Shown here: one piece after another, positions 51,075-51,588 of the stretch
Numbering within the stretch: position 1 is the stretch's first letter
Layout: each line of letters opens with the position of its first letter
Sequence record: OZ335963.1
Length of the DNA stretch: 64,000 nucleotides
Strand: one strand, 5' to 3'
Source of the DNA: a phage
Translations under genes and position numbers: made by a program
Notes under the pieces: model-generated
Database searches by the model: none
Seen by the model: the letters and a program-made list of their open reading frames with translations, nothing else
What the model was told of the DNA's origin: nothing

Positions 51075-51140
51075 TAATTTTGATGAGATAATAGTATCAC
51101 TACCTCATCAGCATGTAAACAACTTTGTGAAATTATTTTA
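51075..51140 (-). promoter_or_regulatory. early promoter (duplicated leader module, copy 2)
   Basis: Minus-strand GTTTACATGCTGATGAGGTAGTGATACTATTATC. Confidence 0.6.
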
Positions 51141-51588
51141 AATCATCTGCCCAATCGAGTTTAAGAGGCTCTTTATATTCACGATCTAGTACGACCGGAA
51201 TTTGTACATCACCGCTAAATGATAAGGGCCCAACATTATAAGACAATGTTATATGCGGTGTGTAATCATCAAAATCATGTGTAGCACCTAGTGCCCGCGC
51301 ATACATGTGTCGACAGCGCAGATATTCAGAATCTAGCACAAGTACAAGAGTCGATCCATCTTGTGTTTTCCATACTTCTAAATGTCCAGAAGAAGCTACT
51401 TCAAAACTTCCGCTTGATGGAACATACGGAACATTTACTCTTGAATAACATATGGTCGAATGAATTTTTTCTCTAGGAACTGGATTAGGAACACGTAAAG
51501 AGCGCTGGAGTTCTTCCAGCGCATCAAGTGTTAATTCTGAAAACTTAGCTGCTACATAAAGACCCGTTGAAAAGTCTTTAAATTCCAT
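51133..51588 (-). CDS. 57B: gp57B (Acb1 2H phosphoesterase, anti-CBASS)
   Basis: 151 aa; two H-x-T/S motifs (HSTI, HITL); T4 position between ipI and 57A. Confidence 0.85.

Follow-up and report, generated by a model that had tools for sequence, protein, structure and literature searches.

The open reading frame (ORF) at 51133..51588 on the minus strand of the window (the whole 64,000-nt stretch of phage DNA analyzed, sequence record OZ335963.1) very probably represents an intact acb1 (gene 57B) of a T4-like Tequatrovirus, encoding a 2H enzyme that cleaves CBASS signals; we put the probability of this reading, which was built on sequence comparisons, at about 0.97. The original prediction, which had named the gene 57B and its product anti-CBASS protein Acb1, is correct, but the gene is already known and characterized. 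The Acb1 reading is supported by a protein identical to that of T4, together with conserved residues, the predicted fold, and gene order. Like T4, this phage is probably equipped to neutralize CBASS signaling. Our analysis adds to existing knowledge a start-codon detail, the anatomy of the repeats at the 3' end, and the persistence of an "RNA ligase" annotation; beyond correct annotation of the gene, its significance is slight.

The ORF list contained the coding sequence exactly as predicted, with 151 amino acids and both the HSTI and HITL motifs, running from an ATG start to a TAA stop; its strand, previously unstated, is minus. HSTI corresponds to residues 43-46 and HITL to residues 112-115 of the product. 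Catalytic motif 1 (H43-S44-T45; T4 H44/T46) is encoded by the codons CAT TCG ACC at 51454..51462 (minus strand), and catalytic motif 2 (H112-I113-T114; T4 H113/T115) by the codons CAT ATA ACA at 51247..51255 (minus strand). The C-terminal lid, located from the FBB1 structure (PMC9117128), comprises residues 144-151 (T4 145-152), including W146 (T4 W147), and is encoded at 51136..51159 (minus strand). A chance ORF was excluded by a tblastn search of a phage collection, which returned 100% identity in many Tequatrovirus records (E=1e-97). Acb1 homologues turned up by tblastn in 1486 phage records, with at least 99% identity in 499 of these; acb1 DNA was present in 561 phage records and reached 95% identity or more in 503.

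Alignment with residues 2-152 of T4 57B/Acb1 (NP_049750.1) showed 100% identity over 151 amino acids, so that the product matches T4 Acb1 residue for residue apart from the extra N-terminal Met of T4, which confirms the proposed gene name. The product was also 100% identical to RB14 57B. Within the coding sequence, seven nucleotide differences from T4 were detected, all of them synonymous, and the differences from RB14 were likewise synonymous only. The 2.2 kb surrounding acb1 shared 96-97.5% identity with T4_ev240, RB14, and RB3, and the 24 kb from 40000 to 64000 shared approximately 96% identity with several Escherichia and Shigella T-even phages. By these nucleotide identities, the window is that of a T4-like Tequatrovirus.

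Profile and structure comparisons placed the product in the Acb1 family. The Pfam model PF23474 (Acb1) matched over its full length (profile 1-144/144) with 202.7 bits (cutoff, 27 bits; E=2.6e-60), and the Acb1 chains of Erwinia phage FBB1 (PDB codes: 7T26 and 7T27) matched at 4.1e-62, with HST/HIT aligned to HTT/HIT. NCBIfam contained no model matching Acb1. A search of a large protein collection yielded 78 clusters, nearly all of approximately 150 aa with a few shorter fragments; PF23474 was the only Pfam domain in 77 of them, and one fragment carried none. From these 78 clusters, 40 homologues were taken for an alignment in which H43, H112, and T114 were invariant down to 28% identity, and T45, Y11, and E140 were at least 90% conserved. 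A second alignment, comprising orthologues from five other Straboviridae lineages, an FBB1 chain, and a portal-fused Acb1 domain, also retained Y11, H43, T45, H112, and T114. The catalytic histidines, whose lack of conservation would have spoken against the prediction, thus align with those of FBB1 Acb1 and are invariant in the 40 sequences. Through the identity with T4, the ligand-contact residues Y11, W73, F106, E140, and W146 and the lid (144-151) are all present.

An AlphaFold2 model computed on the 40-sequence alignment had a mean pLDDT of 89.9 and was uncertain only at the termini; the low values at residues 147-151 are compatible with a flexible lid. The top match of the model among PDB structures in Foldseek was 7T26 (TM 0.88/0.96, rmsd 0.8 Å), and 7T27 was also found. 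The product thereby combines the two H-x-T/S motifs that define the 2H phosphoesterase superfamily with a modeled 2H fold. Between the window protein and FBB1 Acb1, 68% of residues are identical over 141 positions, and both share the HxT/HxT tetrad, the stacking aromatics, and the C-terminal lid; FBB1 Acb1 differs as an orthologue from a phage of another host genus and reads HTT instead of HST in motif 1.

The activity claimed for T4 57B, cleavage of cyclic CBASS signals, is documented in the literature: the enzyme degrading 3'3'-cGAMP was found by activity-guided fractionation, identified as 57B, and named Acb1 (Hobbs et al. 2022, PMC9117128). The same study showed that FBB1 Acb1 adopts the 2H fold, that the ligand bases are stacked by Y12/W74/F107/W147 and the adenine is contacted by E141, that residues 145-152 form the lid, that H44/T46/H113/T115 form the tetrad, and that the H44A/H113A mutant is inactive (PMC9117128). 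A T4 acb1 knock-out was tested there on hosts carrying CBASS operons, and its lysate lacked cGAMP-degrading activity (PMC9117128). In a transposon screen, 57B/acb1 was dispensable on E. coli K-12 and was depleted on a CBASS-expressing host. Expression of 57B/acb1 is mainly middle/late (10.64898/2026.03.30.715471). According to a preprint on viral 2H phosphodiesterases, deletion of the T4 lid abolishes the activation of Panoptes by T4 Acb1, which its authors read as a requirement of the lid for catalysis (10.1101/2025.08.21.671373).

On the basis of the FBB1 orthologue and T4 Acb1, the window protein would act as a 151-aa single-domain, metal-independent 2H phosphodiesterase. Its substrates during infection would be the cyclic di- and trinucleotide signals of host CBASS CD-NTases, namely 3'3'-cGAMP, cUA, cAAA, and cAAG, and cGG would not be cut. 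In the mechanism derived from these two proteins, the aromatic residues Y11, W73, F106, and W146 would stack on the ligand bases while the C-terminal lid shuts over the ligand; an adenosine would be twisted such that its 2'-OH attacks the 3'-5' bond, and acid-base catalysis by H43/T45/H112/T114 would then proceed through a 2',3'-cyclic phosphate intermediate to linear products. With the signal removed, CBASS effectors would stay inactive and abortive infection would be avoided.

The enzyme may also be a broad-spectrum signal eraser for which CBASS is one natural target among several; candidates for the others are the cyclic oligoadenylates of type III CRISPR and further cyclic nucleotides that contain adenosine. 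This reading extends the CBASS explanation and is compatible with it. The preprint reports that T4 Acb1 also cleaves 2'3'-c-di-AMP, about as fast as 3'3'-cGAMP, and that its structural group acts in vitro on oligoadenylates of the type III CRISPR type (10.1101/2025.08.21.671373), and recognition of the bases is mostly blind to their identity, one adenosine excepted (PMC9117128). However, the infection experiments show protection from CBASS only. With Panoptes, a decoy-nucleotide system, over-expressed T4 Acb1 lowers colony formation, whereas deletion of T4 acb1 leaves the defense unchanged. We regard a range of natural targets wider than CBASS as less likely than not and retain the cleavage of CBASS signals as the preferred function. 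Recent work indicates that Acb1 activity can turn into a liability where the host carries a decoy-nucleotide system such as Panoptes.

After the FBB1 chains, the next Foldseek matches of the model were a phosphodiesterase of Burkholderia phage BCSR5, LigT, TT0787, USB1, CPDase, MHV ns2, rotavirus VP3, and AKAP18. The BCSR5 enzyme (2H PDE-9; 9Q2G/9Q2Y) shares with Acb1 the 2H fold, the catalytic histidines, and the degradation of 3'3'-cGAMP, but is only approximately 18% identical and carries its lid at the N-terminus instead of the C-terminus; it cuts 2'3'-c-di-AMP poorly and therefore does not trigger Panoptes. The cellular and eukaryotic-virus enzymes (LigT, USB1, CPDase, coronavirus ns2, rotavirus VP3, and AKAP18) have in common with Acb1 the two HxT/S motifs, a pseudo-symmetric beta fold, and metal-independent transesterification chemistry. 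In contrast to Acb1, they are 10-17% identical, larger (roughly 140-290 residues), and without the Acb1-type C-terminal lid, and their substrates are 2'-5' oligoadenylate, RNA ends, and Appr>p.

One alternative is that the product is an RNA-repair enzyme of the LigT/2'-5' RNA ligase type acting on RNA ends, for instance in tRNA repair beside the phage tRNA cluster. The gene is labeled "RNA ligase" in PHROG 755 (phrog_755) and in the RefSeq records of T4 (NP_049750.1), RB14 (YP_002854478.1), and many others, a weak match to PF13563 (2_5_RNA_ligase2) was obtained (E=0.11, 13 bits), and the model remotely resembles E. coli LigT (Foldseek E=3e-4, TM 0.45-0.54). However, the PF13563 match is partial and its 13 bits lie far under the cutoff of 27, and the likeness to LigT is at superfamily level only, with 11-17% identity and an rmsd of 6.5-10 Å. 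Moreover, fractionation of infected cells for cGAMP degradation led to the identical T4 protein, and this activity disappears from the knock-out lysate (PMC9117128), whereas no ligase activity was reported in the literature that we consulted. Given the sub-threshold PF13563 match and the T4 biochemistry, we rejected RNA ligation as the main function and consider it highly improbable. The label "RNA ligase" appears to be a carry-over from the name of the 2'-5' RNA ligase superfamily. Among the records listed, few were named "anti-CBASS protein Acb1" or "putative phosphodiesterase"; in practice, the label hides a well-characterized counter-defense function in many records.

Directly upstream of acb1 lies gene 57A, encoding the tail-fiber chaperone (51588..51830, minus strand; Pfam GP57, 6.6e-49). 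The TAA stop of 57A and the ATG of acb1 share one base (TAATG, 51586-51591), an overlap which suggests translational coupling of acb1 to 57A. In T4 and RB14, the junction reads GAAGAATGATGGAA, with a TGA stop of 57A and two in-frame ATGs (ATGATG), whereas in the window it reads GAAGAATAATGGAA, with a TAA stop of 57A and the first ATG gone. This single G-to-A change, which turns TGA into TAA, means that Acb1 can start only at the second ATG, giving a product of 151 aa compared with the 152 aa annotated in T4. Annotation of RB14 already starts at this second ATG. Owing to the extra Met of T4, residue numbers in the T4 literature equal the window number plus one. That acb1 is decaying or non-functional in this phage is scarcely conceivable: the loss of the first ATG of T4 is the sole point in its favor, whereas the ORF is intact, the protein equals that of T4 from the second Met on, the nucleotide changes are synonymous only, the second ATG is the annotated start in RB14, and FBB1 Acb1 was crystallized from G8 on (PMC9117128), which indicates that the extreme N-terminus is dispensable for the fold.

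In the direction of transcription, acb1 is preceded by gene 2 (DNA end protector; 1.6 kb upstream), gene 3, gene 1 (dNMP kinase), and 57A, and is followed by Ip5, ipI, trna.4, trna.3, trna.2, an ORF of 171 aa, and ten tRNA genes. As judged from consensus matches, middle/late promoters further upstream would drive 57A and acb1 jointly. For 57A-acb1, a candidate late promoter, TATAAATA, was found inside gene 1 at 52186..52193 (minus strand) and has the T4 late-promoter-type pattern. This pattern was not enriched in the whole window (14 occurrences versus 10.6 by chance), and the possibility that the copy at 52186-52193 drives 57A-acb1 is only a lead. A late promoter at this site would fit the middle/late expression of 57B (10.64898/2026.03.30.715471). 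A scan for consensus promoters and terminators around acb1 returned 16 sites versus 13.1 expected in shuffled sequence; the only ones standing out were three repeated TTTACA-17-TACTAT/TACCAT sites 3' of acb1. By their consensus matches, these early-promoter-like sites would serve Ip5, ipI, and trna.4, but not acb1.

The gene following acb1 encodes the 85-aa internal head protein Ip5 (50803..51060, minus strand), which matched phrog_3499 ("internal head protein", 1.2e-49) and is annotated in RB14; NCBIfam held no matching model, and no target of Ip5 was named in the literature that we found. The next gene, ipI (50443..50730, minus strand), lies 403 nt downstream of acb1 with Ip5 in between, matched PF11634 (IPI_T4, 2e-53), described as "Nuclease inhibitor from bacteriophage T4", and encodes an injected inhibitor of GmrSD type IV restriction (PMC12373910). 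In T4, the injected proteins Ip1, Ip2, and Ip3 inhibit GmrSD type IV restriction enzymes that differ from one inhibitor to the next, and ten or more Ip types are known among related phages (PMC12373910).

This neighborhood had been taken as an anti-defense hotspot to which acb1 belongs, a view that holds in part. Ip5 and the GmrSD inhibitor gene ipI do follow acb1, and gene 2 (DNA end protector) on the other side also counts among the neighbors with a counter-defense role, but acb1 itself is not variable. The unique DNA of Ip5 was present in 252 phage records compared with 561 for acb1 DNA, indicating that the Ip5 cassette is variable. The gene order 3-1-57A-57B was kept in Bragavirus, Krischvirus, Pseudotevenvirus, Slopekvirus, and an Acinetobacter T4-like phage, whereas the genes 3' of 57B differed in each of these five Straboviridae lineages. 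On its other flank, acb1 borders housekeeping or structural genes. Given this fixed order across Straboviridae genera, acb1 borders the variable region and does not belong to its mobile content; the most apt description is that conservation ends with acb1, after which a variable set of injected anti-restriction cassettes follows.

A repeat search revealed how the cassettes are joined to the 3' end of acb1. A direct repeat of 123 nt was found in two copies with 85% identity, at 51026..51148 (copy 1) and 50696..50818 (copy 2), both given on the minus strand and spaced by 330 nt. Copy 1 spans the last five codons and the stop of acb1 (..DDLK*), the Shine-Dalgarno sequence, and the capsid-targeting MKTFKEF leader of Ip5, and contains, directly after the acb1 stop, an early-promoter-like TTTACA-17-TACTAT at 51119-51091 (minus strand). 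In copy 2, the corresponding parts are the last codons of Ip5 (..EDLK*), a promoter-like site at 50789-50761, and the ipI leader. A 54-nt part of the repeat containing the promoter was present in three copies, at 50384-50437, 50750-50803, and 51080-51133. The window resembles T4 in all 151 residues of Acb1, on the side of 57A, gene 1, and gene 3, and in the promoter-like sequence downstream; the difference is that 57B leads straight to ipI in T4, whereas an Ip5 cassette of exactly 330 nt stands between them in the window. The T4 arrangement therefore equals the window minus one 330-nt unit, the Ip5 unit, which is the expected product of recombination between the 123-nt repeats. Whether acb1 serves as a fixed left homology arm through which injected anti-restriction cassettes are gained and lost, always in units of exactly 330 nt, is doubtful, although the repeats, which flank the internal-protein cassettes, are consistent with this idea. 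If true, the end of acb1 that codes for the tail of the catalytic lid would be constrained by both the function of the enzyme and a role in recombination. The ip locus has been known to be polymorphic since 1994 (Repoila et al., as cited in PMC12373910), so that even the homology-arm reading would only refine an existing picture.

Beyond the cassettes, the 171-aa ORF (48991-49506, minus strand) is located between the tRNA cluster and trna.2; it matched phrog_2290 but no Pfam or NCBIfam model. It was missing at the same position in T4 and RB14 and present in T2 and approximately 250 related records. The ten tRNA genes (48073-48904, minus strand) are those for Arg, Asn, Tyr, Met/Ile-CAU, Thr, Ser, Pro, Gly, Leu, and Gln, as in RB14, and their T4 counterpart consists of eight tRNAs broken up by the segB homing endonuclease, together with rnaC and rnaD.

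Several homologues depart from the architecture of the window protein. The 57B homologues of Pseudotevenvirus and Slopekvirus (Citrobacter phage Miller, L006:1459-2079; Klebsiella phage CPRSB, L007:1459-2091) are approximately 207-211 aa long and retain the catalytic tetrad. They have Lys in place of the lid tryptophan W146 and an extra C-terminal tail of approximately 55 residues (..ITEHIEHRGDKWV..), which hints that the lid is built differently or that a module has been added.

Outside the window, the weakest tblastn match led to gp70 of Pseudomonas phage psageK9 (L008:52-1851), a 600-aa protein whose gene adjoins that of the terminase. It combines a Phage_portal_3 domain at 38-385 (5e-89) with a complete Acb1 domain at 457-598 (1.9e-43), in which the HxT/HxT tetrad is intact. 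Related Pseudomonas phages carry near-identical copies of gp70, and a "putative portal protein" of a Rhizobium phage contains a copy with 59% identity. The portal of cyanophage Pam3 (PDB code: 8HDS; 8hds_A residues 497-589) gave a weak match over the Acb1 region; the paper on its structure does not mention an Acb1-like domain. Portal proteins are absent among the fusion partners named in the accessible part of the viral 2H phosphodiesterase preprint (10.1101/2025.08.21.671373), and we found no mention of a portal-Acb1 fusion in the literature consulted. With such a fusion, each virion would contain the signal-degrading domain twelve times.

Finally, one cluster representative (P0001), 99% identical to Acb1, is recorded as "hypothetical protein [Enterococcus faecalis]" on a 3-kb contig; contamination of an Enterococcus assembly with T4-like phage DNA is the most likely source.
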